A stretch of 64,000 nucleotides of DNA from an uncultured Gammaproteobacteria bacterium (GTDB taxonomy: Bacteria; Pseudomonadota; Gammaproteobacteria; Xanthomonadales; Ahniellaceae), in contig CAZTNB010000001.1 of the NCBI GenBank assembly GCA_964614825.1, positions 338 through 64,337 of the forward strand, read 5' to 3'. The first letter of the stretch is position 1; each line of letters begins with the position of its first letter. This document shows positions 12,741 through 59,784 of the stretch, piece by piece. The notes beneath the pieces were generated by a model that saw nothing but the letters and a program-made list of their open reading frames with translations, was not told the DNA's origin and searched no databases. The position numbers and the translations under genes are program-made.

Positions 12741-12754
12741 GGGTCAGTCCTCCC

Positions 12755-12952
12755 TCACGCGTACGGCATCATGCGAGCGACGCGACCTGCGTCCTCGGCA
12801 CGAACATGGTTGGTGGCCCGAAGCCCGCGCTTACGCTTGGTGGACTTCTTGGTCAGGATGTGGCTCTTGAAGGCGTGCCCGCACTTGAACTTGCCGGACG
12901 CCGTCTTCCGGAACCGCTTGGCGGCGGCCCGGTTGGTCTTGATCTTTGGCAT
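12755..12952 (-). CDS. rpmI: 50S ribosomal protein L35
   Basis: The last 65 aa of ORF 12755..13111 read [68 protein letters not shown] at 12952. Confidence 0.95.
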
Positions 12953-13143
12953 GACTGCAAAACTCCGTTGATCGATCTTCGTGACTGAGCCGAGCGGCGG
13001 GGCGACCCGCACTTTCCTTCCTGCTCGGTTCGGCTTGTGTGGCAGGCCGCGAGGCCCGCCTGCTCCATCGCGATCCCGTTTCCGGGACCGCCTGCTTGCA
13101 ACCTTCCCCACGAGGGGGAAGTGCGACGCGGGGTGGCGTGGCG

Positions 13144-13692
13144 CTACTTACGCTTCGGCGCCACCATCATGATCATCAAGCGCCCTTCCATGCGGGGGAA
13201 CTGCTCGATGGTCACTTCGTCCTTCAGGTCCCCTTCCAGGCGCCGCGCCATGGCCATGCCGAGTTCGGTATGGGCCATCTCGCGGCCGCGGAAGCGGATG
13301 TTGATCTTGACCTTGTCGCCTTCGGCAATGAAACGGCGCAGGTTGCGCAGCTTGATCTGGTAATCGCCCTCGTCCGTCGTGGGACGGAACTTGAGTTCCT
13401 TGATCTCCTGCTGCTTCTGCTTCTTGCGCGCCGCGTTGGCCTTCTTCTGCGCCTCGAACTTGAACTTGCCGTAATCCATGATCCGGCACACGGGCGGATC
13501 GGAGTTCGGCACGATCTCGACCAGGTCCAGCCCGAGTTCCTGCGCCATGTTGAGCGCCTCGTCGCGGCTGAGCACGCCGACCTGCTCGCCATCCGCGCCG
13601 ATCACGCGCACGCGCGGAACCCGGATCTCCAGATTGCGCCGATTGCCTTTATTTTCCGTAGCGATTCGTGTGTCCTCTGATGCCCGATGCAC
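13144..13692 (-). CDS. infC: Translation initiation factor IF-3 (start uncertain; probable non-AUG start at 13665)
   Basis: ...[64 protein letters not shown]...[12 protein letters not shown]. The maximal ORF starts at GTG 13692 with no SD. An in-frame ATC at 13665 has AGAGGA 7 nt upstream (see findings). Confidence 0.93.
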
Positions 13693-13713
13693 GAAGGGCC
13701 GTGGCGTTGCGCC

Positions 13714-15621
13714 TCAGCCCTTCACCGATTCCGATTGCAGGCGTTCCGCGAACTGGGCCGGCGTCATCGAGCCCAGGTCCTCCCCGGAACGCGCGCGCAC
13801 CGCGACGGTGCCGTGCTCCTTCTCGCGGTCCCCGACCACGAGCAGATACGGCACCTTCTGCAGGGTGTGCTCGCGAATCTTATATCCGATCTTCTCGTTG
13901 CGCAAATCCGACTCGACCCGGAAGCCTTGATTTGCAAGGTTTTTCCGAACCGCATCCGCCCATTCGGCCTGGGCGTCGGTGATGTTCATGGCGACCGCCT
14001 GCACCGGGGCCAGCCAGGTCGGCAGGTTTCCGGCGTGGTGCTCGATCAGCATGCCGATGAAGCGCTCCAGCGAGCCGACGATGGCCCGGTGCAGCATCAC
14101 CGGGGTTTTCCGGCTCGAATCCTCGGTCACGTACTCGGCCCCGAGGCGCCCGGGCATGAAGAAATCGACCTGCATGGTGCCCACCTGCCAGGCCCGGCCC
14201 AACGAATCCTTGAGGTGGTATTCGATCTTGGGCCCGTAGAAGGCACCCTCGCCCGGCAACTCGTCCCATGGCGTCTCACAGGCCCTGAGACCGCCCCGGA
14301 GCATGTCCTCGGCGCGCGACCACTGGGCGTCGTCGCCGATGCGCTTGTTCGGGCGCAGCGCGATCTTGAGCGAAATCTCGCTGAAGCCGAAGTCGGCGTA
14401 GACCGCCATGGCCTGGCGGTGGAAGGCCACCACCTCGGACTCGATCTGCGCCTCGGTGCAGAAGATGTGGCCGTCGTCCTGGGTGAAGCCGCGCACGCGC
14501 AGCAGGCCATGCAGGGCGCCCGAGGGCTCGTTGCGGTGGCAGGCGCCGAATTCGCCGTAGCGCAACGGCAGGTCGCGGTAGCTGTGCAGGCCGTGGTTGT
14601 AGATCTGCACGTGGCCGGGGCAGTTCATCGGCTTGACCGCGTAGTCGCGGTTCTCCGACGCGGTGGTGAACATGTTGTCGCGGTAGTTGTCCCAGTGGCC
14701 GGTCTTCTCCCACAGCGACTTGTCGAGGATCTGCGGGCAGCGCACCTCGTGGTAGCCGTTGGCGCGGTAGACCCGGCGCATGTACTGCTCCACCACCTGC
14801 CAGATGGCCCAGCCCTTCGGGTGCCAGAACACCAGGCCCGGGCCCTCCTCCTGCATGTGGAACAGGTCCAGCGCCTTGCCGATCTTGCGGTGGTCGCGCT
14901 TCTCGGCCTCTTCGAGCAGGGTGAGGTAGGCCTTGAGGTCCTTGTCGGACAACCAGGCCGTGCCGTAGATGCGCTGCAACTGCGCGTTCTTCTGGTCGCC
15001 GCGCCAGTAGGCGCCGGACACGCGCATGAGCTTGAACGCGCCGAGCTTGCCCGTGCTGGGCACGTGGGGGCCGCGGCACAGGTCGATCCATTCGCCCTGC
15101 CCGTACAGCGAGATCTCCTCGCCGGGCGGGATGATGTCGTCGATGATCGCGGCCTTGAAGGTCTCGCCCTTGTCCTTGAAGAAGGCGATGGCGGCGTCCT
15201 TGGCCATCACGCTGCGCGTCACCGGCAGCGACTCGGCCACGATGCGGCGCATCTCGTCCTCGATCCGGCCGAGGTCCTCCGGCGTGAACGGCGTCTCGCG
15301 CGCGAAGTCGTAGTAGAAGCCGTTCTCCACCACCGGGCCGATCGTGACCTGGGTGTCGGGGAACAGGCGCTGGGTGGCCTGGGCCAGCAGGTGCGCGGTG
15401 GAATGGCGCACGATGTCGAGCGCGTCGGCGTGCTTGACGGTGACGATCTCCAGCGCCGCGTCGCGCGCGATGAGGTGCGAGAGGTCGACCAGCTTGCCGT
15501 CGACCTTGCCGGCGAGGGCGGCCTTGGCCAGGCCCGGGCCGATGCTGGCGGCGATGTCGGCGACGGACACGGCCGCGTCGAATTCGCGCTGGCTGCCGTC
15601 GGGGAGCGTGATCTTGATCAT
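13714..15621 (-). CDS. thrS: Threonine--tRNA ligase
   Basis: 635 aa starting [15 protein letters not shown] (TGS domain). Second additional domain motif [10 protein letters not shown]. Class II core: [32 protein letters not shown]. Anticodon-binding C-terminus. Confidence 0.97.
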
Positions 15622-15661
15622 GGAGTCCTGCCTGCGCCGGCCGCGAGGGGTGGCGGCGGGC

Positions 15662-15694
15662 GCTGGAAACGAAAAAGGGCGCCGAGCGCCCTTT
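15662..15694 (-). terminator. Intrinsic terminator-like hairpin inside the thrS 5' leader
   Basis: The minus strand reads AAAGGGCGC-TCG-GCGCCCTTT followed by TTCGTTTCC (9-bp stem, 3-nt loop, U-rich tail). It lies about 40 nt upstream of the thrS ATG and 115 nt downstream of the preceding gene. Confidence 0.6.
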
Positions 15695-15720
15695 CGCGGG
15701 TGGCCCAGCCGGTGGGTGCT

Positions 15721-19139: not shown

Positions 19140-20255
19140 TTAGGCCCGGTAGGCCGACTCGTATCGCGCGGCCATGGCCGGGATCGAGGCCGACGCCAGC
19201 GCCCAATCGCGCCCGGCCCGGCCCATGTCGCGGGCGCGCGCGGGATCGGCCAGCAGTGCCGCGAGGGCATCCGCGAGGCGCTGCGGATCGCGTGCCGGCA
19301 CCAGCAGGCCGTTGATGCCGTTGCGCACGATCTCGCCGTTGCCGCCCACGTCGGTGGCGACGATGGGCAGGTCGGCGGCGCAGGCTTCGAGCAGTGCGAT
19401 CGAGTAGCCCTCGGTCAGCGAGGACATGGCGTAGAGATCGAGGCCCGCGAGCAGGCGCGGTACGTCGCTGCGGTCGCCGAGCAGGATCACCCGGTCGGCG
19501 ACCCCCTCCGAGGTCGCGGCGGCCTCCACCTCGGCACGCAGGGCGCCATCGCCGATCCATGCCAGCGCGGTCGCCGGATGGCGCTCGCGCACCATGCGAA
19601 AGGCCCGCACCAGCGACACCGGATCCTTGGCCCAGTTGAGGCGCCCCACGGCGCCGATCAGCCGCGTGCCTTGCGGCAGGCCCAGTTCGCGCACCAGGGC
19701 CGCGCGCGCCGCGTCGTTGGCGGGTTCGAAGGCATCGAGGCGGATGCCGTTGGGGATGGCGACCACCTTGGCGGCGGGAATCAGGCCCTGCGCCAGCACC
19801 TCGCGGCGCGCCGCCTCGCACACCGTGACCACCACGTCGGTGCGCGACAGCGCGCGGCGGAACAGCCACTCGCGCCGGCCACCGGGCTGCTGCACCCCCA
19901 TGCCATGGCGGGTGTTGATCGTCCGGCGGACGCCGAGGCCCAGCGCCGCCGCGACCGCGTGGTAGTGCGCAACCGCATTGTGGGTGTGCAGCACCTGCGT
20001 GCGGTGCCGGCGCAGGTGGCCGCGCAGCCGCGCGATGGCGACCAGGTCGAGCCCGCCGCGCTTGCCGCAGGCATGGACCGGGACGCCGGCCGCGGCGAGT
20101 TCGCCGGCCAGCGAGCCGGCCTCGAACAGGCACACGACCTCGCAATCGTGACCCAGCCCGCGCTGCGCGCGCACCAGGTCGATGACCACGCGTTCGAGCC
20201 CGCCGCGGTTGAGGTTCTCGACGACGTGGCTGATGCGCAGCGGCGCGTGGCTCAT
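19140..20255 (-). CDS. Glycosyltransferase family 4 (GT-B, retaining type)
   Basis: ORF 19140..21500, trimmed to ATG at 20255 (MSHAPLRISHVVENLNRGGLERVV...). C-terminal YAMSSLTEGYSIALLEACAADLPIVATDVGGNGEIV. ATGA overlap with the upstream gene. Confidence 0.88.
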   Translation of the reverse strand: MSHAPLRISHVVENLNRGGLERVVIDLVRAQRGLGHDCEVVCLFEAGSLAGELAAAGVPVHACGKRGGLDLVAIARLRGHLRRHRTQVLHTHNAVAHYHAVAAALGLGVRRTINTRHGMGVQQPGGRREWLFRRALSRTDVVVTVCEAARREVLAQGLIPAAKVVAIPNGIRLDAFEPANDAARAALVRELGLPQGTRLIGAVGRLNWAKDPVSLVRAFRMVRERHPATALAWIGDGALRAEVEAAATSEGVADRVILLGDRSDVPRLLAGLDLYAMSSLTEGYSIALLEACAADLPIVATDVGGNGEIVRNGINGLLVPARDPQRLADALAALLADPARARDMGRAGRDWALASASIPAMAARYESAYRA

Positions 20256-21610
20256 GCGATCTCGGACACGGTCACGCGGACCTTGCCCGAGGGCCCCAGC
20301 GGCAGCTCCTCGACCCGCTCGATCGCGAGCGTCATGCCCTCGCCCACCACCTTGCCGATCTGTTCGCGGCAGCGCCGCTCGGCGGCGGCGTCGAAGGCGG
20401 CGTCGGCGACCAGGCTGATGTCGAGCCGGTCGAGCTGGCGCTGGTGCACGCGGAAGCGCTTCACGCCCGGCGTGTCGTTGAACAGGAACGGGAAGAACTC
20501 GCCCGGCACCACGCGTCCATCGGGTGCGCGGATCGCGTCGAGCGTGCGGCCGACCACGCGCGCCAGCCGCGGCAGGCCGCGGCCGCAGGCGCAGGGCGTG
20601 GCCGGGCCGGGCACGGCGGTGTCGCCGTTGACGTAGCGCACGAACGGCATGCCGTAGTTGTGCAGGTCGGTCACCACCACCTCGCCGATCTCGCTGCCGT
20701 CGAGCGCCGGCTGGCGGTTCGCCACCTCCACCACCAGGTGGTCGGCGTTGACGTGCAGGCCTTCCTGCCGCTCGCACTGCGAGGCGACCAGCATGAACTC
20801 GCGGCAGCCGTAGGTGTTGTAGGCCTTGCAGCCGAAGGCGCGCTCGATCAGCTCGCGCTGGAAGTCGTGCAGCGCCTCGGCCGCCCCCAGTATCGACTGC
20901 GGGCTGTGCACCTTGCGCCCCTGCTCGAGCAGCCATTGCGCCAGGCGCACCAGCGGGTTGACGTAGCCCACGATGACGCGCGGCCGGTAGCGGTCGATCT
21001 CGTCGGCGTACTGCGCCATGTTGGCGCCCGACATGAGGTAGGTGTTGAGCACCTTGCGGCCGAACACGCGATGGTAGATGCCGTCCTTGATCCGATGCAG
21101 GTCGGTCGGCCCGTCCACCGGCGCGCCCCACAGGTACAGGGTGCGACGCCCCATGCGCGAACCGGCCCACCCGTAGCCGCGCCACATCACCGCGATGCGG
21201 CGTTCGAAGCTCTCGCGCGTGTAGCCCAGCCGCAGCGGCTCGCCGGTCGAGCCGCTGGTGCTCTTGTAGAGCATCCGGCCGCGCAGCGAGCGCGCGTGCA
21301 TGTCGTCGTAGTTGTCGCGGATGTCGCGCTTGGTCAGCACCGGCAGGCGCGCGTAGTCCGCCAGCGTGCGGATGTCGCCCGGCTCGATGCCGGCCTCGGA
21401 CCAGCGCCGGCGGTAGTACGGCACCTCGTTCCAGCAGTGGGCGAGCAGGCGCTGCAGCTTCTGCCACTGGATCGCGGCGATGCGCTCGGCCGGCAGCCAC
21501 TGGTCGCGCTCGTACTCGCGCAGGTAGCGCAGCGTGTGGCGACGGCGCAGCCCGCCCTCATAGAGCGGGAACAGCAGCTTGCGGAACAGGGACTCGTACA
21601 GGTCGCTCAC
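20252..21610 (-). CDS. PaaK/CapK-like adenylate-forming ligase (phenylacetate-CoA ligase / F390 synthetase family)
   Basis: ORF 20252..22879, trimmed to GTG at 21610 (VSDLYESLFRKLLFPLYE...). P-loop-like YKSTSGSTGEPL. 452 aa. GTGA overlap with the Wzx stop. Confidence 0.8.
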   Translation of the reverse strand: MSDLYESLFRKLLFPLYEGGLRRRHTLRYLREYERDQWLPAERIAAIQWQKLQRLLAHCWNEVPYYRRRWSEAGIEPGDIRTLADYARLPVLTKRDIRDNYDDMHARSLRGRMLYKSTSGSTGEPLRLGYTRESFERRIAVMWRGYGWAGSRMGRRTLYLWGAPVDGPTDLHRIKDGIYHRVFGRKVLNTYLMSGANMAQYADEIDRYRPRVIVGYVNPLVRLAQWLLEQGRKVHSPQSILGAAEALHDFQRELIERAFGCKAYNTYGCREFMLVASQCERQEGLHVNADHLVVEVANRQPALDGSEIGEVVVTDLHNYGMPFVRYVNGDTAVPGPATPCACGRGLPRLARVVGRTLDAIRAPDGRVVPGEFFPFLFNDTPGVKRFRVHQRQLDRLDISLVADAAFDAAAERRCREQIGKVVGEGMTLAIERVEELPLGPSGKVRVTVSEIA

Positions 21611-23160
21611 GTCGCCTCCCGGGCCGCCCTGCGGCCGGCCCATGCCAGCAGTCCGTCCAGCCCGGGCACGCGGCCCGACCCGATGCGCGCGAGCAGTTCG
21701 CGGATGTGCGCGATGTCGGCCACGCTCCAGCAGCCCAGCAACAGCGTCGCGAAGGCGTACGACAGCGAGACCACGACGAAGCCGGTGACGACCGCGGGCA
21801 ACGGATGCCCGATGTAGTGCGAAGGGAACGCGCACGCGGCGGCGATCGCGCCGGCACCGCCGATGCGCAGCAGGCGCGCCCACGGCAGGCGGGTGCCGCC
21901 GGTGCGCGCGCCGAACACGATCATCGCCGCGGCGCTGGCGATGGTCGCGACCGCATAGGCGGCGATCGCCCCATGCAGCCCGAAGCCGCGGATCAGCACC
22001 ACGTCCAGCCCGATCTTGAGCAGCCCGCACAGGAACACGATCGCCAGCACGATGTTCTGCCGCTCGGAGCTCATCAGCAGGCTCGACCCCCCCTGCGAGA
22101 CCACCGAGACCGACTTCGCGAACAGGATCACGGCGAAGGCCGGGGCGGCGGCCAGGTAGGCGTTGCCGTACAGCACCGCCATCACCGGCTCCGCGAACAG
22201 GACGCCGAAGGCCAGCAGCGGCATGGCCAGCAGCGCGAGGTAGGTGGTCGCGCCGACGAAGCGGCGGCCGGCGGCCTCGCGGCTCTGGCTCAGCGCGTTG
22301 GCCATCATCGGCAGCAGCAGGACGCCGAACACCCCTGGCACCAGCAGCGTGGCGCCGTCGGCCAGCTGGTAGGCGACCTTGAACTTGCCGGCCGCCGACG
22401 CGGTGTCGAGCAGGTTGAGGAACATCACCTCCACCTCGCTCGCGGTCACGTAAGTGATGATCACCATGACCGCGGTGATGCGCATGTGGCGCACGACCCG
22501 CGCGTGCAGCGACTCGGGCAGCGCCAGCCCCGCGGGGGATTCCGGCACCAGTCCGCCCGTCTGCCGGCTGGACACGAAATAGAACACCGCGCTGGAGACC
22601 GCGTACACGCCGAGGAAGCCCTCGACCGGCGCGCTGACCCACCACGCCAGCGCCACCAGCAGCAGGTTTGCCGGCGCCGCCACCGTGGCGATCACCGCGG
22701 TGGCGCGGAAGTGCTCGAAGCCCTTGGCGATGCAGACGTTGAACATGTAGTTGGCGCGCAACGCGGTGGACAGCGCCATGAGCAGGAACAGCAGCAGGTG
22801 GTTGAAGCCCGGCACGAGGTGGTCGCCGGCGAACCAGAACACCGCCGCGCCGGCCGCCAGCACGGCGACGAGGAACCACTGCTGCACGCGGCGCAGGAAG
22901 GCCAGCAGCGGCGCGATCAGCTCCGGGGTGCCGGCGCCGCGCAACTCGGCCACGAAGCGGATCACCGCGCCGGCGGTGCCGGCATTGACGATGGTCATGC
23001 TCACCGCGACCAGCCAGATGACGAGGCTGTACGCGCCGAAGCCGCCCGGCCCGAGGTCGCGCGCGATCAGGATCGAGGTCAGCATGCCGAGGAAATACTC
23101 GGTGTAGATCGCCACCGAGGTGAAGGCCGTGTTGCGCAGCGTGGTCGATCGCGTGTTCAT
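21607..23160 (-). CDS. Wzx-like polysaccharide flippase (MOP superfamily), copy 1
   Basis: ORF 21607..24546, trimmed to ATG at 23160 (MNTRSTTLRNTAFTSVAIYTEYFLGMLTSILIARDLGPGGFGAYSLV...). 517 aa, multi-TM. ATGA overlap with the Wzy-like stop. Confidence 0.85.
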   Translation of the reverse strand: MNTRSTTLRNTAFTSVAIYTEYFLGMLTSILIARDLGPGGFGAYSLVIWLVAVSMTIVNAGTAGAVIRFVAELRGAGTPELIAPLLAFLRRVQQWFLVAVLAAGAAVFWFAGDHLVPGFNHLLLFLLMALSTALRANYMFNVCIAKGFEHFRATAVIATVAAPANLLLVALAWWVSAPVEGFLGVYAVSSAVFYFVSSRQTGGLVPESPAGLALPESLHARVVRHMRITAVMVIITYVTASEVEVMFLNLLDTASAAGKFKVAYQLADGATLLVPGVFGVLLLPMMANALSQSREAAGRRFVGATTYLALLAMPLLAFGVLFAEPVMAVLYGNAYLAAAPAFAVILFAKSVSVVSQGGSSLLMSSERQNIVLAIVFLCGLLKIGLDVVLIRGFGLHGAIAAYAVATIASAAAMIVFGARTGGTRLPWARLLRIGGAGAIAAACAFPSHYIGHPLPAVVTGFVVVSLSYAFATLLLGCWSVADIAHIRELLARIGSGRVPGLDGLLAWAGRRAAREAT

Positions 23161-28133: not shown

Positions 28134-29039
28134 TCAGGCCGGCGCGTGCGACACGCCGTTGTCGCGCACGCCGCGACCCAGCGCACGGCGCAGCAGTGCC
28201 CGCGCCGCGGCGTAGCCGCCCAGCACCGCCGCCTTGGCGCGGTCGCGCGCCGGCGAACGACCCACCGGGGCCGGTTCCAGGCCCAGGCGGCGCAGGCGCG
28301 CGTTGCCGCGGTAGAGCAGCTCGCGGCGGCGGGTGGCGTCGGTGTAGTACGTGAAGCTGACCGTGATCGAGGGCCCGTCGCCGTTCTCGACCATGTGCGG
28401 CGAGGTGGACGGCATGTAGCCGCCCATCCCCGGTTCGAGGTCGAACACGCGGGCGCGCGACCGGAAGGACTCGTCCCACACCACGCCCGCGCGCGAATGC
28501 TGGTCGTGGAACAGCTCCTGCCCGCGCTCCGACACCACCTCGCGATCGAAGGGATCCCAGGTGTAGAGGCGCTTGCGGCCGCGGATCTGCAGGATGAAAT
28601 TGTGCTCGTGGTCGATGTGGAACGGCGTCACCGCGCCGGGCGAACTGACGAAGATCCAGCCTCCCCGATAGCACATGCCGGGGTCGCGCGCCTCGACCAT
28701 GGGGCGCACCGAATCCAGCACCTCGTCGACCAGGCGCCGGTACACCGGATCGGCCTGCACGTTGAGCAGCGACATCCACGCCTTCGCCTGCGCGATGCCG
28801 GCCAGGGTCTCCTCGGCGCTGCGGCGATTCGGATGCAGCAGCGGGGCGTCGGCGAAGCTGCTGCCGGCGGTGGCCGCGTCGCTGTGGGTGCGCACCAGCT
28901 TGCGCGCCTCCAGGCGCCGCCCCAGTTCGACCAGCGCGTCGATCTGCAGCAGCGGGTGGTCGCGCAGGGCGTGCGTGACGGCCTGGATCCGCCACGGATC
29001 GAACGGTCCTTCCGCCGGGGAAACCAGGGCCTGCGCCAT
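28134..29039 (-). CDS. Cupin/JmjC-like putative Fe(II)/2-oxoglutarate-dependent oxygenase
   Basis: ORF 28134..29720, trimmed to ATG at 29039 (MAQALVSPAEGPFDPW...). HxD in TPFHIDHEHNF plus a distal His in STSPHMVENG. 301 aa. Confidence 0.7.
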   Translation of the reverse strand: MAQALVSPAEGPFDPWRIQAVTHALRDHPLLQIDALVELGRRLEARKLVRTHSDAATAGSSFADAPLLHPNRRSAEETLAGIAQAKAWMSLLNVQADPVYRRLVDEVLDSVRPMVEARDPGMCYRGGWIFVSSPGAVTPFHIDHEHNFILQIRGRKRLYTWDPFDREVVSERGQELFHDQHSRAGVVWDESFRSRARVFDLEPGMGGYMPSTSPHMVENGDGPSITVSFTYYTDATRRRELLYRGNARLRRLGLEPAPVGRSPARDRAKAAVLGGYAAARALLRRALGRGVRDNGVSHAPA

Positions 29040-29075
29040 GGCCGGCGATGATACGGCAGCTGTTATCCTGCGGCG

Positions 29076-29894
29076 ATGGGACTGATCGAGACCGGCGAGC
29101 GCATCGCGCGCAACGCCTGGCGGGTGCCCGTGCTGGGCCGCATCCTCGCCTGGGACTACGCGCGCAGCTTCGCCCGCATGCCGCCCAACCGCTTCCGCGG
29201 CGTGTACGCCAGCTTCGCCGAAGCCGAGCGCGCCATTCCCGCCGGCGCGCGCGTGGGCTACGACCACGTCGAGCTCGGCGGCATGTACCGCCTGCGGATG
29301 GAGAAGGCCTGCCAGAGCGACTATGCCGTGCTCTTCTGGCTGCGCCAGCTGGTCGACGCCGACACGCGGCTGTTCGATTTCGGCGGCCACGTCGGGGTGA
29401 GCTACCACGGCTGGAAGCGCTACCTCGGCTATCCGCCGGGCCTGCGCTGGCGGGTCCATGACGTGCCGGCGATCGTGGCCGAGGGCCGCGCGCTGGCGCG
29501 CGAGCGCGACAGCGCCGGACTGGAGTTCACCGACCGGCTGGAGGACGGCCGCGACTGCAACGTGCTGCTCGCCGCCGGCGCCCTCCAGTACGTGGACTTC
29601 GGCGTCGCCGAGCTGCTCGAGCGCATGGGCACGCGGCCACGGCACCTGCTGGTCAACAAGATGCCGCTGTACGAGGGCGAGACCTTCGTCACCGTGCAAT
29701 CGACCGGGCGCGCGTTCCATCCCTACCGCATTCTCAATCGCGACGAGTTCGTGCGCGGCGTCATCGCGCTGGGCTACCGCGTGGTCGACGACTGGAGCAA
29801 CCGCGAGCAGTACTGCCGCATCCCCTTCACCCGCGGGCGCGACATCGACGCCTACAGCGGCTACTACTTCGTGCGCGAGGACGCGCCGCGCTGA
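29076..29894 (+). CDS. Putative methyltransferase (resembles the LIC12133-type family seen in O-antigen loci); function is low confidence
   Basis: 272 aa: FRGVYASFAEAERAIP...LFDFGGHVGVSYH...LLAAGALQYV. Coding-like composition. Family assignment is from memory only. Confidence 0.6.
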   Translation: MGLIETGERIARNAWRVPVLGRILAWDYARSFARMPPNRFRGVYASFAEAERAIPAGARVGYDHVELGGMYRLRMEKACQSDYAVLFWLRQLVDADTRLFDFGGHVGVSYHGWKRYLGYPPGLRWRVHDVPAIVAEGRALARERDSAGLEFTDRLEDGRDCNVLLAAGALQYVDFGVAELLERMGTRPRHLLVNKMPLYEGETFVTVQSTGRAFHPYRILNRDEFVRGVIALGYRVVDDWSNREQYCRIPFTRGRDIDAYSGYYFVREDAPR

Positions 29895-29903
29895 GCGGTC
29901 CGC

Positions 29904-42655
<12,752 letters not shown>

Positions 42656-42659
<4 letters not shown>

Positions 42660-43465
42660 GGATTGAGCTCCTCGATCCGCCCCAGGATCGCCACGATCGC
42701 ATCCATCGGCACCACCGCCGCGTTGAGCGCGGCATCCGAATCCCAGGCGCCGCTGTCGGGCAGGTCGATCCAGCGCTGCGCCGGCCCGCCGGAAAGCTGC
42801 GCGCGCAGACGATCGAGCGGCGCCGAGGGCCGCACCGCCAGCACGGACAACTGCTCCGATTGCGGCAGTTCCCGCGCCAGGTCGACCCCCGCCATCGCCT
42901 GCGCCAGTGCCGGCGCGATCTCGCTGCCCAACGCTTCCGCCGGGATGCCCTGGCCGTCCACCGCCAGGCGATCGCGCCAGCCGGCGGCGCCCATTTCCTC
43001 CCGCAGGTAGGCGCGGTGCGCCTGCGCGAGGTCGCGCAGGTACTGCAGGCCGTCGACCACCGGATCCCACAGGACCAGGTGCCGCACGCGCAAGCCGCGG
43101 CGAGTGGTCGCGAGTGCCGCCAGGGTGGCGCCGAAGCGCAGACCGACCAGGACCAGGCGATCGACGCCCGATTCGCGGCGCAGCTCGGCCGCGGCGGCGA
43201 CGATGTCGTCGAGCCAGTCGTCGACGCCGAATTCGGCGTCGTCGCCGCCCGAATCGCCGGTGCCCGCGTAGTCGAAGCGCAAGGCCGTGTAGCCGGCCTG
43301 CTCCAGCCTGCCGGCCAGCACCCGATAGGTGCGGTGGGCGCGCGCGGCTTCCTCGCCGAAGGGATTGCACAGCAGCACGGCCGCGCTGCGCGCGCGCAGG
43401 CGTGCCGACTGGTGCAGGCCGGCGAGCAGCATGCGCCCGTTTGCCCCGAAGTAACGGATCGTCAT
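42656..43465 (-). CDS. Alpha/beta-hydrolase-fold protein lacking the canonical nucleophile (resembles exosortase-A-system-associated hydrolase-type proteins)
   Basis: ORF 42656..43888, trimmed to ATG at 43465 (MTIRYFGANGRMLLAGL...). Nucleophile-elbow position reads LVLVGLRFGATLA (G-L-R-F-G). No His in the last ~110 aa. 269 aa. Confidence 0.75.
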
Positions 43466-43526
43466 CGCGAAGGACCCTAGGCTATAGTCCGCCGCCACGG
43501 CTTGGCAATGCAGGGCGCGATCCCCC

Positions 43527-44453
43527 ATGGCGGCTGCGCGCGAGGCGATCCACGAGCGGGTGTTGCGCCTGGGCGACGACGGCCACCTGGTCGCGATCGC
43601 CACCGATCCGCCGGCCACGGGCGCGACGCCGACGGCGATCCTGCTCAACGCCGGCGTGCTGCACCGCGTCGGTCCCCACCGCCTGCACGTGCGGCTCGCC
43701 CGCAACCTGGCCGCGAACGGCATTCCGGCGGTCCGTATCGACCTCTCGGGCATCGGCGACAGCAGGCCGCTGCCCAGTGGCCTTGGCTTCCGCGCCAGCT
43801 CGGTTGCCGACGTGCGCGCCGCGATGGACCAGCTCGGCGGCACCACGGGCCGCTTCGTGCTGTTCGGCGTCTGTTCGGGCGCCGACAACGCGCTCGCCGC
43901 GGCCGAGGTCGATCCGCGCGTGGCCGGCCTGGTGCTGGTGGACCCGCCCGCGTATGCGACCGCCGCGTCGCGCTGGCGCCGGCACCGCGCAAGCGCGCGC
44001 GACCCGGCCTACCTGCTCGGGCTGCCACGCCGCATCGTCGCGGCCCTGGCACGGCGCGCGCGGCGCCTGTGGTCGACGACGGGCGCGTCGAAGGCCGGCC
44101 AGGAGCCGGCACCAGGGCGCAAGTCGCCGCCACTGCCGGACTTCAGGCGGCAGATGGAGGCCTTGCTCGGGCGCGGGGTGCGCATCCTCGCGATCTACTC
44201 CGGCGCGTTGGGCGATCGCTGCAACGGCCGCGACCAGTTGTTCGAGGCGTTGCCGGAATTGCGCGGCCGCATCGAACTGGAGTGGTTCGCGGATGCCAAC
44301 CACACGTTCACCGAGCGCTCGGCCCAGGCGGCGTTGCTCGACGTGGTGCTGGCCTGGTTCGAGCGCCATTTCAGCCCGTTCCCGCGCGCCACCGGCGCGG
44401 AGGCGCAGGTCGATGCAGAAGGACAACGCGAAAAGCGGCGCGGAACCGCCTAG
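43527..44453 (+). CDS. Alpha/beta hydrolase with a Cys at the nucleophile elbow
   Basis: 308 aa: AILLNAGVLHRVGPHRLHVRLARNLAANGIPAVRIDLSGIGDS. Elbow RFVLFGVCSGADNA (G-V-C-S-G). C-terminal ADANHTF is a candidate catalytic His. Divergent from the previous gene across a 61-bp spacer. Confidence 0.78.
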   Translation: MAAAREAIHERVLRLGDDGHLVAIATDPPATGATPTAILLNAGVLHRVGPHRLHVRLARNLAANGIPAVRIDLSGIGDSRPLPSGLGFRASSVADVRAAMDQLGGTTGRFVLFGVCSGADNALAAAEVDPRVAGLVLVDPPAYATAASRWRRHRASARDPAYLLGLPRRIVAALARRARRLWSTTGASKAGQEPAPGRKSPPLPDFRRQMEALLGRGVRILAIYSGALGDRCNGRDQLFEALPELRGRIELEWFADANHTFTERSAQAALLDVVLAWFERHFSPFPRATGAEAQVDAEGQREKRRGTA

Positions 44454-45211
44454 GCCGCTGCCTCGGCGACGAACCTGGCGCCGTCCCAGGCGACCCATCG
44501 TGTCGGCACCGGCGATGGCAGTCCGCCTGCGAGGGGCAGGCACAGCGCCCCCACATGGCCGGGCCCCACCGGCAACCACTCGAACCGCCAGCGACCCGCC
44601 GGGCCGTCGGCCTGGTCGCTCTCGACCAGGCGCGGACGTTCATCCGTGCCCTCGAGGTCGAAGCCGCAGCGGTCTGGCGCCCGCTCCAGGCCGACGCCGA
44701 TGGCCTTGAGGTAGGCCTCCTTGAGGGTCCAGAGCCGGGCGAAGCGGTGCGGCCGGCGCGCGGCGGGCAGGTCCAGGTACGCCGCCCGTTCGCGCGGCGA
44801 CAGGCAGGTCTGCACCAGTTCCGCCGCGACCTCGGTCCGCACCGGCTCCACGTCGACCCCGGGCCAGCCCTCGGCCGAGACCGCGCAGGCCACCAGGCCG
44901 GTGGTGTTCGCCACGCTGAAGCGCAGGGCCCGGGCGGCAGGTGGCGCCACGACCTCGGGGCGGCGGTGCCCGGCACGGGCGAACTCCAGCCGCGCCGGGT
45001 CAACCGCCGCATCGCCGGTAGCCCAGGCGAGCGCGAGGCGCTGCAGGGCGCGCGAGGCGGTCGCCAACTCGCGATCGCGGGCCTGGCGGAAGCGGCCGGC
45101 ATGGGCCAGGTCGGCGGCGTCGAGCAGGCCGGGGGCGTCCTGGCTGGCCACGGCCGCGGCCAGCCGCTCCGGCCGCGCCAGGTACACGCAAGGCAAGCGC
45201 GGCGCGGCCAT
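44450..45211 (-). CDS. Sfp-type 4'-phosphopantetheinyl transferase
   Basis: ORF 44450..46237, trimmed to ATG at 45211 (MAAPRLPCVYLARPE...). Motifs GVDVEPV and WTLKEAYLKAIG. 253 aa. Confidence 0.85.
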   Translation of the reverse strand: MAAPRLPCVYLARPERLAAAVASQDAPGLLDAADLAHAGRFRQARDRELATASRALQRLALAWATGDAAVDPARLEFARAGHRRPEVVAPPAARALRFSVANTTGLVACAVSAEGWPGVDVEPVRTEVAAELVQTCLSPRERAAYLDLPAARRPHRFARLWTLKEAYLKAIGVGLERAPDRCGFDLEGTDERPRLVESDQADGPAGRWRFEWLPVGPGHVGALCLPLAGGLPSPVPTRWVAWDGARFVAEAAA

Positions 45212-56225: not shown

Positions 56226-57752
56226 ATGAGCATGCTGCCCGCGAAGCTCGCGCGGATCGCCGCCACCGATCCGGGCCGCGTCGCGCTGGTCGACGGCGAG
56301 CGGCGCGCGGGCTACGGCGACTTGTGGGACGCGGCGCGCCGCTTCGCCGCGGTGCTCGCCGCGCGCGGCGTCGGCGCCGGCGACCGCGTCGCGGTGCTGC
56401 TGCCGAACTGCATCGAGGCGGTGGTCGCCTGCTACGGCGCCTGGCTGGCGCGGGCCGTGATCGTGCCGCTCAACGTGCAGGCGCGGGCGCGCGACTATGC
56501 GGCGTGGCTGTCGCACGCGCAGCCGGCGCTGCTGGTGCACGAGGCCGGCAGCGCCGACGTCGCCGAGGCGCTGGCGGCGGCCGCGCTGGCGGGCCTGCCC
56601 TGCATCGAGGTCGGGTCTGGCGCCGGGTCCGGGAGCGCCTGGGACCCGGCGCTGGCGGCGGTGGCGCCGGTGCCGGCCGGCGCCGATCCCGCCGCCGACG
56701 AGCCCGCGCTGATCCTCTACACCTCCGGCACCACCGGCAGCCCCAAGGGCGTGCTGCTCTCGCATGGCAACCTCGCCGCCAACGTCGAGGCGATCGTCGC
56801 CTACCTCGGCCTGCGCGCCGACGACAGCATCGTCAGCGTGCTGCCCTTCTACTACTCCTACGGCGCCTCGGTGCTGCACACGCACCTGTCGGTCGGCGCG
56901 CGGGTCAGCCTGGCGCCGAACCTGGTGTTCCCGCACCTGGTGGTGGAGAGCCTCGCCCGCGAGCGCGCCACCGGCTTCTCCGGCGTGCCCTCGACGTACG
57001 CCCTGCTGCTCGACCGGGTCGACCTCGCGGCGCACGACCTCTCGTCGCTGCGCTACCTCACCCAGGCGGGCGGGCCGATGGCGCCGGCGCTGACGACGCG
57101 CGTGCGCGCCGCGCTGCCGCAGGCGCGGCTGTACGTGATGTACGGCCAGACCGAGGCCACCGCGCGCCTGACCTGGCTGCCGCCGGAGCAGCTGGACCGA
57201 AAGCTGGGAGCCGTGGGCATCCCGCTCGAGGGCGTGTCGCTGCAGGTGCGGCGCGAGGACGGCAGCGTCGCCGCCACCGACGAGCCGGGCGAAGTGTGGG
57301 TTCGCGGCCCGAACGTGATGCAGGGCTACTGGCACAACCCGCAGGCCACCGCCGAGGTCCTGCGCGACGGCTGGCTGCGCACCGGCGACCTCGGCCGGCT
57401 CGACGCCGACGGCTACCTGTGGCTGTCCGGCCGGCGCAGCGACATGATCAAGACCGGCGCGCACCGCGTGCACCCGCAGGACGTCGAGGAAGCGATCGCC
57501 GAGCTGCCGGCGGTGGCCGAGGTCGCGGTGGTGGGCGTCGACGACGCGGTGCTGGGCCAGGTGGTCAAGGCCTGCATCGTGCGCGCGGGCGAGCTCAGCG
57601 CGGACCAGGTCAAGGCGCACTGCCGCCGGCGCCTCGCGCCGTACAAGATCCCGAAGCACGTCGAGTTCCTGGCCGCGCTTCCGAAAACCGCATCGGGCAA
57701 GGTCCGGCGCGTCGAACTCATCGCACCAACGCCATCGCAGGGGGCACCGTGA
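56226..57752 (+). CDS. AMP-dependent acyl-CoA/acyl-ACP ligase (ANL superfamily)
   Basis: 508 aa: LILYTSGTTGSPKGVLLSHGNL, YGQTEA, WLRTGDLG, GRRSDMIKTGAHRVHPQDVE, PKTASGKVRR. Confidence 0.9.
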   Translation: MSMLPAKLARIAATDPGRVALVDGERRAGYGDLWDAARRFAAVLAARGVGAGDRVAVLLPNCIEAVVACYGAWLARAVIVPLNVQARARDYAAWLSHAQPALLVHEAGSADVAEALAAAALAGLPCIEVGSGAGSGSAWDPALAAVAPVPAGADPAADEPALILYTSGTTGSPKGVLLSHGNLAANVEAIVAYLGLRADDSIVSVLPFYYSYGASVLHTHLSVGARVSLAPNLVFPHLVVESLARERATGFSGVPSTYALLLDRVDLAAHDLSSLRYLTQAGGPMAPALTTRVRAALPQARLYVMYGQTEATARLTWLPPEQLDRKLGAVGIPLEGVSLQVRREDGSVAATDEPGEVWVRGPNVMQGYWHNPQATAEVLRDGWLRTGDLGRLDADGYLWLSGRRSDMIKTGAHRVHPQDVEEAIAELPAVAEVAVVGVDDAVLGQVVKACIVRAGELSADQVKAHCRRRLAPYKIPKHVEFLAALPKTASGKVRRVELIAPTPSQGAP

Positions 57753-58738
57753 CGCAACTGGACTGGAACGTACTCGATCTCGACTACGAGCGCGAAGCCA
57801 CGCGCATCGCCGCGCGGCTGCGCGAGATCGTCGGCCGCACGCTGCACCGGCGCGGCCTGGTCGTGGCCATTTCCGGCGGCATCGACAGCTCGACCTGCCT
57901 CGGCCTGGCGGTGCGTGCGCTGGGCCCGGACAAGGTCCATGCGCTGATCCTGCCCGAGCGCGATTCCAACGACGACAGCGCGGCGCGCGCGCGCATCCTC
58001 GCCGACCACCTGGGCGTGCGCACCCAGACCCACGACATCGAGCCGGCGCTGGCCGCGATCGGCTGCTACGAGCAGCGCGACGCGGCGGTGCGCCGCGCCC
58101 TGCCCGGCTACGGCCCCGGCTGGCGCTTCAAGATCGTGATCGCCGGCGGGCGCGAGGGTCGCATCAACTATTTCCGGCTGGTCGCCAAGGCGGCGGACGG
58201 CACCGACCACGACGTGCCGCTGCCGCTCAACGAGTACCTCACGATCGTCGCGGCGACCAACTTCAAGCAGCGCATCCGCAAGACCCTGGAGTACTTCCAC
58301 GCCGACCGCCTCAACTACGCCGTCACCGGCACGCCGAACCGGCTCGAGTACGACCAGGGCTTCTTCGTCAAGAACGGCGACGGCGCGGCCGACGTCAAGC
58401 CGATCGCGCACCTGTACAAGAGCCAGGTCTACGGCATGGCGCGCCACCTGGGGCTGCCGGAGCGGGTCTGCGCCGCGGTGCCGACCACCGACACCTACAG
58501 CCTGGCGCAGGGCCAGGACGAGTTCTACTTCGCCCTGCCCTACCGTTCGATGGACCTGGCGCTGTGGGCGCTCAACCACCAGGTGCCGGCGGCCGAGGTC
58601 GCGCGCGTGCTCGGCATCGGCGTGACCGAGGCCGAGGCGGTGTACGCCGACATCGAGGCCAAGCGTCGCACCACGCGCTACCTGCACCTGGCGCCGGTGC
58701 TGGCCGGCGAAGTCCCGGAGCTGGACCTGCACCCGTGA
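57749..58738 (+). CDS. NAD synthetase (NadE)-family PP-loop ATP pyrophosphatase, without a glutaminase domain
   Basis: ORF 56324..58738, trimmed to GTG at 57749 (GTGA overlap with the ligase stop). PP-loop VVAISGGIDSST. 329 aa. Confidence 0.8.
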   Translation: MTQLDWNVLDLDYEREATRIAARLREIVGRTLHRRGLVVAISGGIDSSTCLGLAVRALGPDKVHALILPERDSNDDSAARARILADHLGVRTQTHDIEPALAAIGCYEQRDAAVRRALPGYGPGWRFKIVIAGGREGRINYFRLVAKAADGTDHDVPLPLNEYLTIVAATNFKQRIRKTLEYFHADRLNYAVTGTPNRLEYDQGFFVKNGDGAADVKPIAHLYKSQVYGMARHLGLPERVCAAVPTTDTYSLAQGQDEFYFALPYRSMDLALWALNHQVPAAEVARVLGIGVTEAEAVYADIEAKRRTTRYLHLAPVLAGEVPELDLHP

Positions 58739-59784
58739 GCGCAGCGCCGCCCGTGTCGCCGTATGCGGTCGAGATCGGGGAGGTCGCACGCGACCGCGAC
58801 ACCCTGCTCGCGATCTGGCGCGGCAACCTCGGCGAGCCGGCGCGCATGGCGGCGAAGTACGACTGGTTCTATCGCGGCTGCCCCTACGGCGAGCCGCTGG
58901 TGTGCCTGCTGCGCCACCGCGAGAGCGGCGCCGCGGTGGGGGTCGCCGTCGCCGGCCCGCGGCGCATGCAGCTGGGCGCGCGCAGCCTGCGCGCGGGCGT
59001 GCTGGTCGACATGGCGGTGCTGCCGGAACACCGTAGCCTGGGCCCGGCGCTGGCCTTGCAGCAGGGCCTGATGCAGGCGGCGGCCAGCCGTTTCGACCTC
59101 GTCTATGGATTCCCGAACCCGAAGGCGGCACCGGTGTTCAAGCGCGTCGGCTACGCCGCATTGGGCGAGATGGTGCGCTACGCGCGCGTGCTGCGCCATG
59201 CGCGCTACCTGGCGCGGCGCATGCCGCGGCCGCTGGCGCGGCTGGCGGGCACGGCGGTCGACCTTGCCGTCGCCGCGCGCGATGCCTGGCGGCGGCGCGG
59301 CGATCCCGCGCTGCGGGCGCAGTGGATCGACCACCTGGGCGCCGACGCCGATGCGCTGTGGAGCGCCGGCACGCCCTCGCCCATGGCGCTGGCGGTGCGC
59401 GACAGCGCGCTGCTGGAGTGGCGCTTCGGCCACGGCCCGGAGTCGCGCGTGCGCTATCTGGAATTGCGCGACCCCGCCGACCGGTCGCTGCGCGCCTGGT
59501 TCGCCGGCGAGGTCGTGGATGGCATCCTGCACGTCGGCGACTACTGGTCGACCGACGCGGCGCAGGGCGTGGGGCGCGTGGCGGTCGACGCCTTGCTGCG
59601 GGCTGCCCGCCGCGCCGGTTACATTGCGGTCTCGGTGCAGCTGGCGGGCGCGCCGGTCGAAGCCGCGGGGTGGCTCGCCGCCGGTTTCACGGCGCGCGCG
59701 CGGCGACCGGTCTACGGTCGCTGGTTCGGCAAGGAAGCGGCGCCCGCCGGGCTGCACCTGACCGCCGTGGACGAGGACGAGTGA
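58735..59784 (+). CDS. GNAT-fold acyltransferase-like protein (two-lobed, FemAB/BioF2-like size)
   Basis: ORF 58564..59784, trimmed to GTG at 58735 (GTGA overlap). GVLVDMAVLPEHRSLGPALALQQGLMQAA...YGFPNPKAAPVFKRVGY. 349 aa. Confidence 0.65.
   Translation: MSAAPPVSPYAVEIGEVARDRDTLLAIWRGNLGEPARMAAKYDWFYRGCPYGEPLVCLLRHRESGAAVGVAVAGPRRMQLGARSLRAGVLVDMAVLPEHRSLGPALALQQGLMQAAASRFDLVYGFPNPKAAPVFKRVGYAALGEMVRYARVLRHARYLARRMPRPLARLAGTAVDLAVAARDAWRRRGDPALRAQWIDHLGADADALWSAGTPSPMALAVRDSALLEWRFGHGPESRVRYLELRDPADRSLRAWFAGEVVDGILHVGDYWSTDAAQGVGRVAVDALLRAARRAGYIAVSVQLAGAPVEAAGWLAAGFTARARRPVYGRWFGKEAAPAGLHLTAVDEDE

Follow-up and report, generated by a model that had tools for sequence, protein, structure and literature searches.

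A Cys-type alpha/beta hydrolase and its Arg-elbow paralog as candidate off-loaders of a thioesterase-less NRPS-PKS megasynthase

How does a peptide-polyketide assembly line that carries no release domain of its own let go of its product? The question is raised by an NRPS-PKS megasynthase found in the 64-kb window analyzed here (by window we mean the whole stretch of DNA), next to which lie the genes of two alpha/beta-fold proteins, H2 on the same strand and H1 divergent from it (Table 1). The domain order of the megasynthase is A-T-KS-AT-T-AMT-C-A-T-C-A-T, and Pfam recovered three AMP-binding, two Condensation and four PP-binding domains together with KS, AT and a class-III aminotransferase. 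The KS, AT, AMT and C motifs are intact, as is the Ser of all four carrier domains. Predicted specificities are Val-like for A1, malonyl for AT and Gly for both A2 and A3, so that the chain would be a short amine-rich peptide in which a Val-derived 3,4-diamino acyl unit is followed by Gly-Gly.

The Pfam scan of the megasynthase found no thioesterase (TE), reductase (R) or terminal C domain, these are likewise missing from some 20 homologs with a visible C-terminus, and no other release function was found in the megasynthase or among the window ORFs that were scanned. The protein ends in ...AAMPGAAAAPSMPEPASTRPGWLQRLRRWLGRGEA, with an amphipathic basic motif, G-[WF]-L-x-R-[LVF], that occurs at the same position in homologs of other phyla. 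Both the Pfam scan and the C-terminal sequence thus agree with the first-pass annotation, which had described a protein that stops after "T3" and a short basic tail with no release domain; its T3 is the third PCP, which becomes the fourth carrier domain once the PKS ACP is counted.

Table 1. Features of the window discussed in the text (position 1 is the first letter of the window)
Feature	Position	Strand	Details
Polysaccharide island	15809-64000	.	Deacetylases, Wzy/O-ligase-like protein, two Polysacc_synt flippases, GT2/GT4/GT1
Cupin/JmjC-like protein	28134-29051	minus	Likely tailoring oxygenase
TIGR04325-family methyltransferase	29076-29894	plus	Convergent with megasynthase end
Megasynthase C-terminal tail past final T	29904-30014	minus	Basic, ~33-36 aa; ...RPGWLQRLRRWLGRGEA
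TE-less NRPS-PKS megasynthase	29904-42659	minus	4251 aa
H2, putative alpha/beta-fold pseudo-hydrolase	42656-43465	minus	269 aa; ATG 43465, TGA 42656
H2 Arg110 codon, GLRFG elbow	43136-43138	minus	Aligned to esterase Ser
Sigma-70-like site	43459-43488	plus	Upstream of H1
Divergent intergenic region	43466-43526	.	61 bp between H2 and H1
H1, alpha/beta hydrolase	43527-44453	plus	308 aa; ATG 43527, TAG 44453
H1 Cys116 codon, GVCSG elbow	43872-43874	plus	Aligned to Ser nucleophile of solved esterases
H1 Asp139 codon	43941-43943	plus	Invariant; candidate acid residue
H1 His259 codon, ANHTF	44301-44303	plus	Aligned to catalytic His
Sfp/HetI-type 4'-phosphopantetheinyl transferase (PPTase)	44450-45211	minus	253 aa; convergent with H1, stops share CTAG
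TIGR03098-like ligase	56226-57752		354 bits (cut-off 592); 12 kb off, no ACP or decarboxylase

The nucleophile elbows were assigned by searching the H1 and H2 family profiles against PDB sequences. In H1, "GlCsG" lies over the "GLSMG" that holds the Ser nucleophile of solved Hydrolase_4 esterases (9pjb/9pir), and "anHtF" over the "gdHtF" of their catalytic His. The G-x-C-[S/A]-G motif is kept in 81 of 81 H1 sequences, taken from 80 species-level genomes of several phyla, and the AF2 model adopts an alpha/beta fold (pLDDT 81). By its elbow and His, H1 would be classed as a catalytic alpha/beta hydrolase. The candidate acid residue, Asp139, is invariant but located after beta6, and the family alignment has no invariant Asp after beta7, which counts against the off-loader reading. 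Direct reading of the sequences found no signal peptide in H1 or H2.

The profile of H2 places "GlrlG" over "GFSLG", again on the nucleophilic Ser of solved esterases of the Hydrolase_4 family. The last His of the protein is H150, the final 119 residues are His-free and "SDAALN" stands in place of the His loop; the model is nevertheless confidently alpha/beta (pLDDT 89). With neither nucleophile nor His, H2 is predicted not to be a catalytic alpha/beta hydrolase. By hhalign the two proteins are remote paralogs (97.8% probability, E = 9e-13), and the Cys of one and the Arg of the other share a single alignment column. The stop of H2 overlaps the GTG start of the megasynthase (42659-42657) as GTGA at 42656-42659, by which the two genes are translationally coupled. 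All of this bears out what had been read from the letters at first pass, namely a divergent hydrolase at 61 bp with a Cys elbow and ANHTF, and a neighbor with an Arg elbow, no C-terminal His and a GTGA junction; the proviso that a Ser nucleophile might turn up elsewhere finds no footing, as Cys and Arg both fall on the esterase Ser column.

The comparison set comprised, apart from the window, 80 loci from as many species-level genomes of several phyla. H2 adjoins H1 in every one of them (80/80). The pair is accompanied by this TE-less assembly line, visible at least as far as KS and AT, in 62 of these loci; a further 12 are short contigs that retain just the first A or A-T, and two retain only a terminal C/T fragment. 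About 20 loci of other phyla read megasynthase, terminal T, H2, H1, and type II loci read terminal T, (PPTase), H2, H1. Judged from this gene order, placement after the terminal T is that of a putative release enzyme. The family is large, with 2,167 protein clusters at E <= 1e-30 in a profile search of a 50%-identity library. Together with the gene fusions described below, these linkages support the proposal that the Cys enzyme and its apparently dead paralog serve the TE-less megasynthase in trans. The part of that proposal which did not stand is the word "degenerate": G-x-R-x-G is kept in 77 of 78 H2 sequences from the same 80 genomes and many further residues are invariant, and because of this the reading of H2 as a degenerate pseudogene was rejected.

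Stand-alone alpha/beta hydrolases beside NRPS genes are often type II thioesterases (TEIIs), which would edit mis-primed or stalled carriers while the chain is released by another route, and H1 and H2 resemble them in being stand-alone alpha/beta-fold proteins beside a megasynthase, with a PPTase gene adjacent. However, a TEII is a single Ser-His-Asp subunit of the Pfam Thioesterase family that accompanies an assembly line with its own release domain. H1 and H2 share none of these features: H1 has Cys rather than Ser, H2 looks catalytically dead, neither matches Thioesterase (PF00975) with its G-x-S-x-G, and no other release function was found in the megasynthase or among the scanned window ORFs. 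Nor are TEIIs known to accompany simple ACP cassettes in EPS loci. On family membership and the absence of any other release domain, TEII identity was rejected, and we consider an editing role very improbable.

The Pfam matches of both proteins are limited to the generic families Hydrolase_4, Abhydrolase_1 and Abhydrolase_6. In NCBIfam, the best match of H1 is TIGR03100 (hydr1_PEP; 81.8 bits, model positions 13-273 of 274) and that of H2 is TIGR03101 (hydr2_PEP; 106.4 bits, 16-210 of 266), hypothetical equivalogs named "hydrolase 1/2, exosortase A system-associated". The HMM search that had been proposed for the pair therefore returned these families on top, yet both proteins score under the curated cut-offs (168.45 bits for TIGR03100 and 202.75 for TIGR03101). 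As in TIGR03100/TIGR03101, two divergent alpha/beta-fold proteins are encoded side by side, here 61 bp apart and adjacent throughout the comparison set. The partners differ: TIGR03100/TIGR03101 accompany a ligase/ACP/decarboxylase set, whereas in the window no TIGR03098/ACP/TIGR03099 set neighbors the pair, which adjoins a 4251-aa NRPS-PKS.

Among the ORFs scanned in the window there was no exosortase (xrtA) or PEP-CTERM gene. Several genes of the window are related, below threshold, to XrtA-system families (TIGR03088, 03097, 03098 and 03108), and in Lautropia a related pair adjoins a TIGR03013 XrtA-system glycosyltransferase. Homolog searches, including a plasmid tblastn and the Cupriavidus locus, gave matches that all belong to the branch studied here or to an amino acid-[ACP] ligase branch; only one of them, in the former (P0171, JGI), is named "exosortase A-associated hydrolase 2". 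Literature searches on exosortase, Haft 2006, carrier-protein ligases and DUF1839 found no functional study of the exosortase-associated hydrolases.

Double hydrolases with a hydr2-like N-domain and a hydr1-like C-domain occur in Azospirillum, Mycetohabitans, Shinella and P0385; at the elbows of the first three, the N-domain has R, R and G, respectively, and the C-domain always C. In the EPS locus of Shinella, the fused hydr2-hydr1 is followed by an ACP, a TIGR03098-like ligase (567 bits against a cut-off of 592) and a TIGR03099-like PLP decarboxylase (413 against 478). The hydrolase unit is found with three carrier supplies, namely NRPS-PKS lines, an ACP with the TIGR03098-like ligase and TIGR03099-like decarboxylase, and an ACP with an amino acid-[ACP] ligase. 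The first-pass annotation had stated that paired "hydrolase 1/2" genes accompany an acyl ligase, ACP and PLP enzyme in exosortase-A EPS loci, and had made co-occurrence of orthologous pairs with carrier-protein systems a condition of its proposal; the NCBIfam matches and the Shinella cassette uphold the former, and the 62 NRPS-PKS loci together with the small ACP cassettes uphold the latter. From the Shinella arrangement we therefore conclude that the megasynthase occupies the place of the small cassette.

Two further fusions involve H1 on its own, which is joined to A-T-KS-AT in P0391 and to a Polysacc_synt_3 (Wzx-type) flippase in P0456, where the contig reads NRPS C-A-T, H2, H1::flippase, flippase, deacetylase, sulfotransferase, GT4. 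At 90% clustering each fusion stands as a singleton, and each could be an artifact of assembly or gene calling, which counts against the weight given to them. In the amino acid-[ACP] ligase cassettes, a DUF1839 protein lies beside the fused hydrolase. DUF1839 has been placed among the papain-like cysteine peptidases (PMC10318531). The DUF1839 protein could be the real transferase of these cassettes, which counts against a transferase role for H1/H2. It may be kin to the ACP-dependent acyltransferase BtrH.

The left 15.7 kb of the window is housekeeping (thrS-infC-rplT-pheST etc.), and the remainder is a polysaccharide island that, besides the genes listed in Table 1, holds Acyl_transf_3, an AsnB-like amidotransferase, a GFO-epimerase fusion and ligases. 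This setting recurs. A MOP flippase directly follows H1 in 28 loci, at least one polysaccharide-type neighbor is present on the visible flank in 43 of 80, and in Variovorax the genes after H1 encode Wza, Wzc, a sugar transferase, GTs and a flippase. In about half of the loci, Pseudoxanthomonas included, the one visible flank has no polysaccharide gene, which counts against a functional tie.

The Pseudoxanthomonas flanks fit a simpler account in which H1, with H2, is a trans thioesterase or cyclase that hydrolyzes or lactamizes the T-bound chain, the free peptide leaves through the MOP exporter and the polysaccharide genes are unrelated. The MOP superfamily includes exporters of drugs and metabolites, the free amines of the predicted chain could cyclize, and a TE-less megasynthase tightly linked to the pair is what would be expected. 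However, the hydr2/hydr1 unit also serves small ACP cassettes inside EPS loci, the pair recurs with Polysacc_synt_3 flippases, deacetylases and sugar transferases in Myxococcota, Burkholderiales, Alteromonadales and Rhizobiales, and H1 is fused to a flippase in P0456; moreover, a universal Cys with a conserved dead partner would be unusual for a simple TE. We regard this account as rather unlikely.

The explanation that we favor, with moderate confidence, is that H2 and H1 together form a cytoplasmic, heteromeric, Cys-based off-loader or transferase that serves the final carrier of the megasynthase, with an undecaprenyl-linked glycan as the likeliest acceptor. The finished chain would pass from the last carrier domain to the H2+H1 enzyme, where Cys116 of H1, activated by His259, would attack the T-bound thioester to give an S-acyl enzyme, to be resolved by an acceptor nucleophile and not by water. 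H2 would be non-catalytic, and its fixed Arg, together with a basic surface that is conserved, would help to bind the phosphopantetheinyl carrier or the acceptor; the amphipathic tail of the megasynthase might anchor the terminal T domain to the membrane. Of the conceivable acceptors (glycan, lipid or water), the most likely would be an undecaprenyl-linked sugar repeat unit in the membrane, perhaps joined through an amine freed by one of the neighboring deacetylases. Transfer of the peptide would precede export by a Wzx-type flippase, and the outcome would be a polysaccharide with a cationic peptide side chain. Unloading of the peptide is the most likely role of the pair, and grafting onto a polysaccharide a possible further one. 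What the sequences show is the anatomy of the locus, the conserved residues, the linkage of the genes and the fusions, while the complex, the thioester chemistry, the structure of the product and the acceptor are predictions.

Alpha/beta-fold enzymes that transfer acyl groups, such as the PhaC PHA synthases, typically carry a Cys in the lipase box, as do Cys-containing NRPS TE domains; in both, a nucleophile other than water resolves the covalent S-acyl intermediate. H1 shares with them the Cys for Ser at the elbow and, by prediction, a thioester substrate, but it has no sequence kinship to them past the fold, and it is a stand-alone protein paired with a putatively dead paralog. Cys-type alpha/beta hydrolases can also merely hydrolyze, as does dienelactone hydrolase, and Foldseek comparison of both models with the PDB retrieved generic esterases, lipases and TE domains (TM ~0.5-0.7) with no specific analogue; both points count against a transferase.

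The likeness to PhaC also admits a version in which the next unit, through its free amine, attacks the chain bound to the Cys, giving an exported diamino-acyl-Gly-Gly polyamide. H1 resembles PhaC in its alpha/beta fold and G-x-C-x-G lipase box, and the predicted unit has both a thioester and free amines. Nevertheless, in sequence this motif is all that H1 has in common with PhaC, to whose families neither H1 nor H2 has a Pfam or NCBIfam match, and polymerization would leave unexplained both the small ACP cassettes for single amino acids in which hydr2/hydr1 is used and the glycosyltransferase-rich context. It seems to us highly unlikely.

Transfer from a carrier to a glycopolymer, as in the off-loader that we favor, has precedents. 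DltABCD D-alanylates teichoic acids, and AlmEFG adds glycine or diglycine to the lipid A of Vibrio cholerae; as proposed here, an amino acid loaded on a carrier by an adenylating enzyme is handed by a dedicated transferase to a surface glycopolymer or lipid, which gains positive charge, and AlmEFG resembles our prediction also in that Gly or Gly-Gly is the transferred end (deduced here from the A-domain codes). The enzymes differ, DltB being an MBOAT, DltD SGNH-like and AlmG LpxL-like, whereas here a Cys alpha/beta hydrolase with a pseudo-enzyme would act on an NRPS-PKS chain. In the butirosin side chain pathway, in which BtrJ is the ligase, the PLP decarboxylase BtrK acts on an amino acid tethered to the ACP BtrI, and BtrH, an ACP:aminoglycoside acyltransferase, then moves the product to a sugar amine; this set is matched by the ligase, ACP, type III PLP decarboxylase and ATP-grasp beside the fused hydrolase of Shinella. 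BtrH, however, is papain-like and its acceptor is an aminoglycoside, whereas H1 is an alpha/beta hydrolase with a polysaccharide as its proposed acceptor.

A broader version would make the hydr2/hydr1 unit a general carrier-protein:glycan acyl or peptidyl transferase, which in this locus grafts diamino-acyl-Gly-Gly onto the undecaprenyl-linked repeat unit at the inner face of the membrane before Wzx flipping. It would extend to the exosortase-A hydrolases 1/2, and free amines on the polymer might even be the long-sought acceptor for protein attachment by exosortase. We hold this version tentatively and lean somewhat against it. The exosortase-A "hydrolase 1/2" proteins have so far been hypothetical, and this locus with its roughly 80 relatives gives them a candidate job, the unloading of carrier-protein thioesters. 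Should the chain go to a lipid-linked glycan, NRPS-PKS chemistry would be coupled directly to Wzx/Wzy polysaccharide assembly, and peptide-decorated cationic exopolysaccharides would be expected in Lysobacterales, Myxococcota, Burkholderiales and others; such grafting would define a class of non-ribosomal peptide-polysaccharide conjugates. For genome mining there is a caution, in that "orphan" TE-less clusters may yield no free small molecule.

Two genes at the distal end of the megasynthase also have counterparts elsewhere. The Cupin/JmjC-like protein is 76-77% identical to the product of an H2-adjacent gene in two Kofleriaceae loci, and the TIGR04325 family also flanks the Variovorax cassette.

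The two alpha/beta hydrolases of the window, H1 (Cys at the nucleophile elbow) and H2 (its Arg-bearing paralog), lie as the first-pass annotation had placed them. ORF coordinates confirm the size of H2 and the GTGA in which its TGA stop overlaps the GTG start of an NRPS-PKS megasynthase, and H1 is divergent; the 61 bp between the two start codons include one sigma-70-like site upstream of H1. H1 and the PPTase gene converge and overlap by a few bases, since both stop codons fall inside a CTAG palindrome. The megasynthase contains three AMP-binding, two Condensation, KS, AT, class-III aminotransferase (AMT) and four PP-binding (T) domains, ordered A-T-KS-AT-T-AMT-C-A-T-C-A-T. As claimed earlier, a domain search of its 4251 aa found no thioesterase, reductase or terminal C domain; the protein ends with a T domain and then ...RPGWLQRLRRWLGRGEA.

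Positions of the features discussed (window coordinates unless a locus is named)
Feature	Position	Strand	Basis or remark
H2, 269 aa	43465 to 42656	minus	ORF reading
H1, 308 aa	43527-44453	plus	ORF reading
Megasynthase, 4251 aa	42659 to 29904	minus	ORF and Pfam-type domain content
Megasynthase tail motif	29904-30014	minus	G-[WF]-L-x-R-[LVF]
Sfp-type PPTase, 253 aa	45211 to 44450	minus	convergent with H1
CTAG palindrome	44450-44453		H1 and PPTase stops
Housekeeping genes	1-15720		
Wzx/Wzy-type polysaccharide island	15.8 kb to end		
Cupin/JmjC-like gene	28134-29051	minus	
Cupin/JmjC-like gene, Kofleriaceae L039	8072-9013		directly after H2
Cupin/JmjC-like gene, Kofleriaceae L040	~8083-8985		directly after H2
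Second adenylating enzyme, NadE-like and GNAT-like genes	56226-59784	plus	
PaaK/F390-synthetase-like ligase	20252-21646	minus	
Coding-looking ORF, 394 aa	25366-26550	plus	no Pfam/NCBIfam match
Coding-looking ORF, 788 aa	59852-62218	plus	no Pfam/NCBIfam match
GFO/IDH/MocA oxidoreductase-epimerase/dehydratase fusion, 692 aa	49329-51407	plus	
TonB-dependent receptor	3614-7513	minus	stop-to-stop ORF
AraC-type regulator	6586-7737	minus	stop-to-stop ORF

When the H1 and H2 family profiles were searched against PDB sequences, both elbows aligned with the Ser nucleophile of solved Hydrolase_4-type esterases ('GlCsG' of H1 with 'GLSMG', 'GlrlG' of H2 with 'GFSLG') and 'anHtF' of H1 with their catalytic 'gdHtF', which upholds the Cys and Arg assignments and the role given to the ANHTF His. 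The C-terminus of H2 is indeed devoid of His, the last one being residue 150, and an invariant W-x-S-D-A-A-L-N occupies the His-loop position. AlphaFold gave confident alpha/beta folds (pLDDT 81 for H1, 89 for H2), for which Foldseek found generic esterases and lipases and nothing more specific. The two are distant paralogs across their N-terminal 130 residues, C and R sharing one alignment column. Homolog searches returned hundreds of relatives at 45-90% identity for each, and a profile search of a 50%-identity library found 2,167 clusters at E-value <= 1e-30. Across 80 species-level genome loci, the H1 elbow G-x-C-[S/A]-G is present in 81/81 sequences and the H2 elbow G-x-R-[L/F/W]-G in 77 of 78, the lone exception having Gly. 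H1 also conserves His259, Asp139, Ser225 and a basic N-terminal motif (NAGVLHRVGPHRLHV), and H2 a comparable basic stretch, CNPFGEEAARAHRxYR. Since H2 keeps this stretch, the elbow Arg and many further residues, it is, judged from the alignments, a conserved pseudo-enzyme and not a decaying copy.

The affinity to exosortase-A (XrtA)-associated hydrolases proposed at first holds: TIGR03101 and TIGR03100 (hydr2_PEP and hydr1_PEP) are the nearest families by sequence, but the pair falls below both curated cut-offs and no exosortase was found in the 64-kb window. Given both failed cut-offs, and since the window shows none of the XrtA context that defines these families, we file the pair as a related, NRPS-linked branch of these families, not as a member.

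H1 and H2 adjoin in all 80 loci, and in 62 of them the assembly line of the window, A-T-KS-AT(-T-AMT-C...), flanks the pair and can be followed to KS and AT or further; 12 short contigs show the first A (or A-T) alone, and two more loci a terminal C/T fragment. In the type I layout, that of the window, the megasynthase and H2 diverge from H1 (Lysobacterales, Myxococcota, some Acidobacteriota). In type II, at 32-40% identity, the pair follows the megasynthase immediately past its terminal T domain, sometimes after a PPTase (Burkholderiales, Gemmatimonadota, Alphaproteobacteria, Alteromonadales and others), and every megasynthase of this layout likewise finishes on a T domain with no release domain behind it. 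Editing of the TEII type by the pair seems very improbable to us. Four loci have no NRPS in view (L039, L040, L065, L080), and in one of them (Lautropia, L080) the pair adjoins a TIGR03013 XrtA-system glycosyltransferase scoring above cut-off.

The carrier-protein link suspected initially extends beyond NRPS-PKS lines, as the hydr2/hydr1 unit occurs with two further kinds of module. One, in a Shinella polysaccharide locus, combines ACP and ATP-grasp with an AMP ligase that scores 567 bits on TIGR03098 (cut-off 592) and a PLP decarboxylase that scores 413 bits on TIGR03099 (cut-off 478), and matches the ligase/ACP/PLP-enzyme cassette named in the first-pass annotation. The other (Azospirillum L083, Mycetohabitans L085 and probably Cupriavidus L084) comprises ACP, an amino acid-[ACP] ligase, an acyl-CoA dehydrogenase-like protein, DUF1839, which may be an alternative transferase there, and GH2/beta-mannosidase, and always terminates with a fused hydr2-hydr1. 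The element constant to all three modules is, from their predicted functions, a carrier-bound thioester.

Double hydrolases of ~600 aa, with an N-terminal hydr2-like and a C-terminal hydr1-like domain, were found in Azospirillum, Mycetohabitans, Shinella and a metagenome (P0385); in the three named genera the N-domain elbows read GLRLG, GLRAG or GFGLG and the C-domain ones GLCAG, GICSG or GRCSG, plus a His motif. In one metagenomic protein H1 is fused to A-T-KS-AT, and in another to a Polysacc_synt_3 flippase, on a contig with NRPS C-A-T, H2, H1::flippase, flippase, deacetylase, sulfotransferase and GT4. Being singletons, the fusions are weak evidence individually; jointly they point the same way, linking H2 to H1, and H1 both to the assembly line and to the flippase.

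The specificity positions of A2 and A3, read from core motifs, are DILQLGLVWK, the code that Stachelhaus et al. assign to glycine; those of A1 (DALWFGGTFK) are Val-like. KS keeps its C-H-H and AT its GHSVGE and HAFH (malonyl), and the lysine of AMT and the two HHxxxDG motifs are likewise preserved; with the A codes they predict that the last T should carry a 3,4-diamino-5-methylhexanoyl-Gly-Gly thioester, which the adjacent cupin/JmjC-like protein and methyltransferase may modify further. After the last T, many homologs from other phyla have a short basic amphipathic end, G-[WF]-L-x-R-[LVF]-x-x-x-[LG]; its G-[WF]-L-x-R-[LVF] part recurs in the window and at the megasynthase ends of L061, L062, L066, L067, L071, L072, L075, L078 and L082. 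This end presumably resembles the MinD membrane-targeting helix (KGFLKRLFGG), and could anchor the protein in the membrane or act as a helix on which H2/H1 dock.

The island around the pair contains deacetylases, an O-ligase/Wzy-like protein, two flippases, GT2/GT4/GT1, Acyl_transf_3, an AsnB-like amidotransferase and sugar-modifying enzymes. In Variovorax, a cassette of TIGR04325 methyltransferase, NRPS, PPTase, H2 and H1 leads into genes for Wza, Wzc, a sugar transferase, GTs and a flippase; a MOP flippase gene comes immediately after H1 in 28 loci, and flippase, deacetylase or AsnB-like genes lie downstream in type II loci. Type I loci show a single flank, the other 10 kb being filled by the megasynthase. 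At least one polysaccharide-type neighbour stands on the single visible flank in 43/80 loci (30/52 among those of at least 15 kb) and none on that of the Pseudoxanthomonas loci, so that the association is frequent, its universality not being proven.

On balance, we consider it probable that H1 and H2 off-load or transfer the chain in trans. Cys116 of H1, with His259 as base, would attack the T-bound thioester, and the acceptor would resolve the S-acyl-H1 intermediate; H2 would provide a binding surface, its fixed Arg close to the shared pocket. Neither protein has a signal peptide, which argues for a cytoplasmic reaction and so for a cytoplasmic or inner-leaflet acceptor. Given the flippase linkage, an undecaprenyl-linked repeat unit would fit best, possibly acylated on an amine that a deacetylase has freed; a glycan acceptor specifically carries roughly half of our confidence in the overall role. 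Plain hydrolytic or cyclising release, with a free peptide as product, is possible, if clearly less probable than trans transfer. A literature search found no published function for these hydrolases. The transfer we propose would follow a logic like that of Dlt and AlmEFG, which move carrier-bound amino acids to envelope polymers, and of the butirosin BtrI/J/K/H pathway, with a chemistry for H1 like that of PhaC and Cys-TE domains, Cys-type alpha/beta-fold acyl-transferring enzymes; polymerisation as by PhaC itself we regard as highly unlikely.

The cupin/JmjC-like gene is 76-77% identical to genes in two Kofleriaceae loci with no NRPS in view, an identity that, in a Lysobacterales-type window, suggests horizontal transfer of cassette parts. 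The ligase of the second adenylating group scores 354 bits with TIGR03098, under cut-off (top match, a fatty-acid-CoA ligase), and precedes a NadE-like ATP-pyrophosphatase (PRK00876, above cut-off) and a GNAT-like protein; these genes may be a further acylation module for the same polysaccharide. The PaaK/F390-synthetase-like ligase (DVU_1553 family, 158 bits, under cut-off) has a TIGR03088-like GT4 on one side and a flippase on the other. The 394-aa ORF has a 56%-identical homolog in a Piscinibacter locus (L065), and the NAD-dependent epimerase/dehydratase fusion is 92% conserved in a related MAG locus (L002). The TonB-dependent receptor and AraC-type ORFs overlap by ~900 bp, probably just because the receptor ORF, in DNA of high GC content, stays open far upstream.
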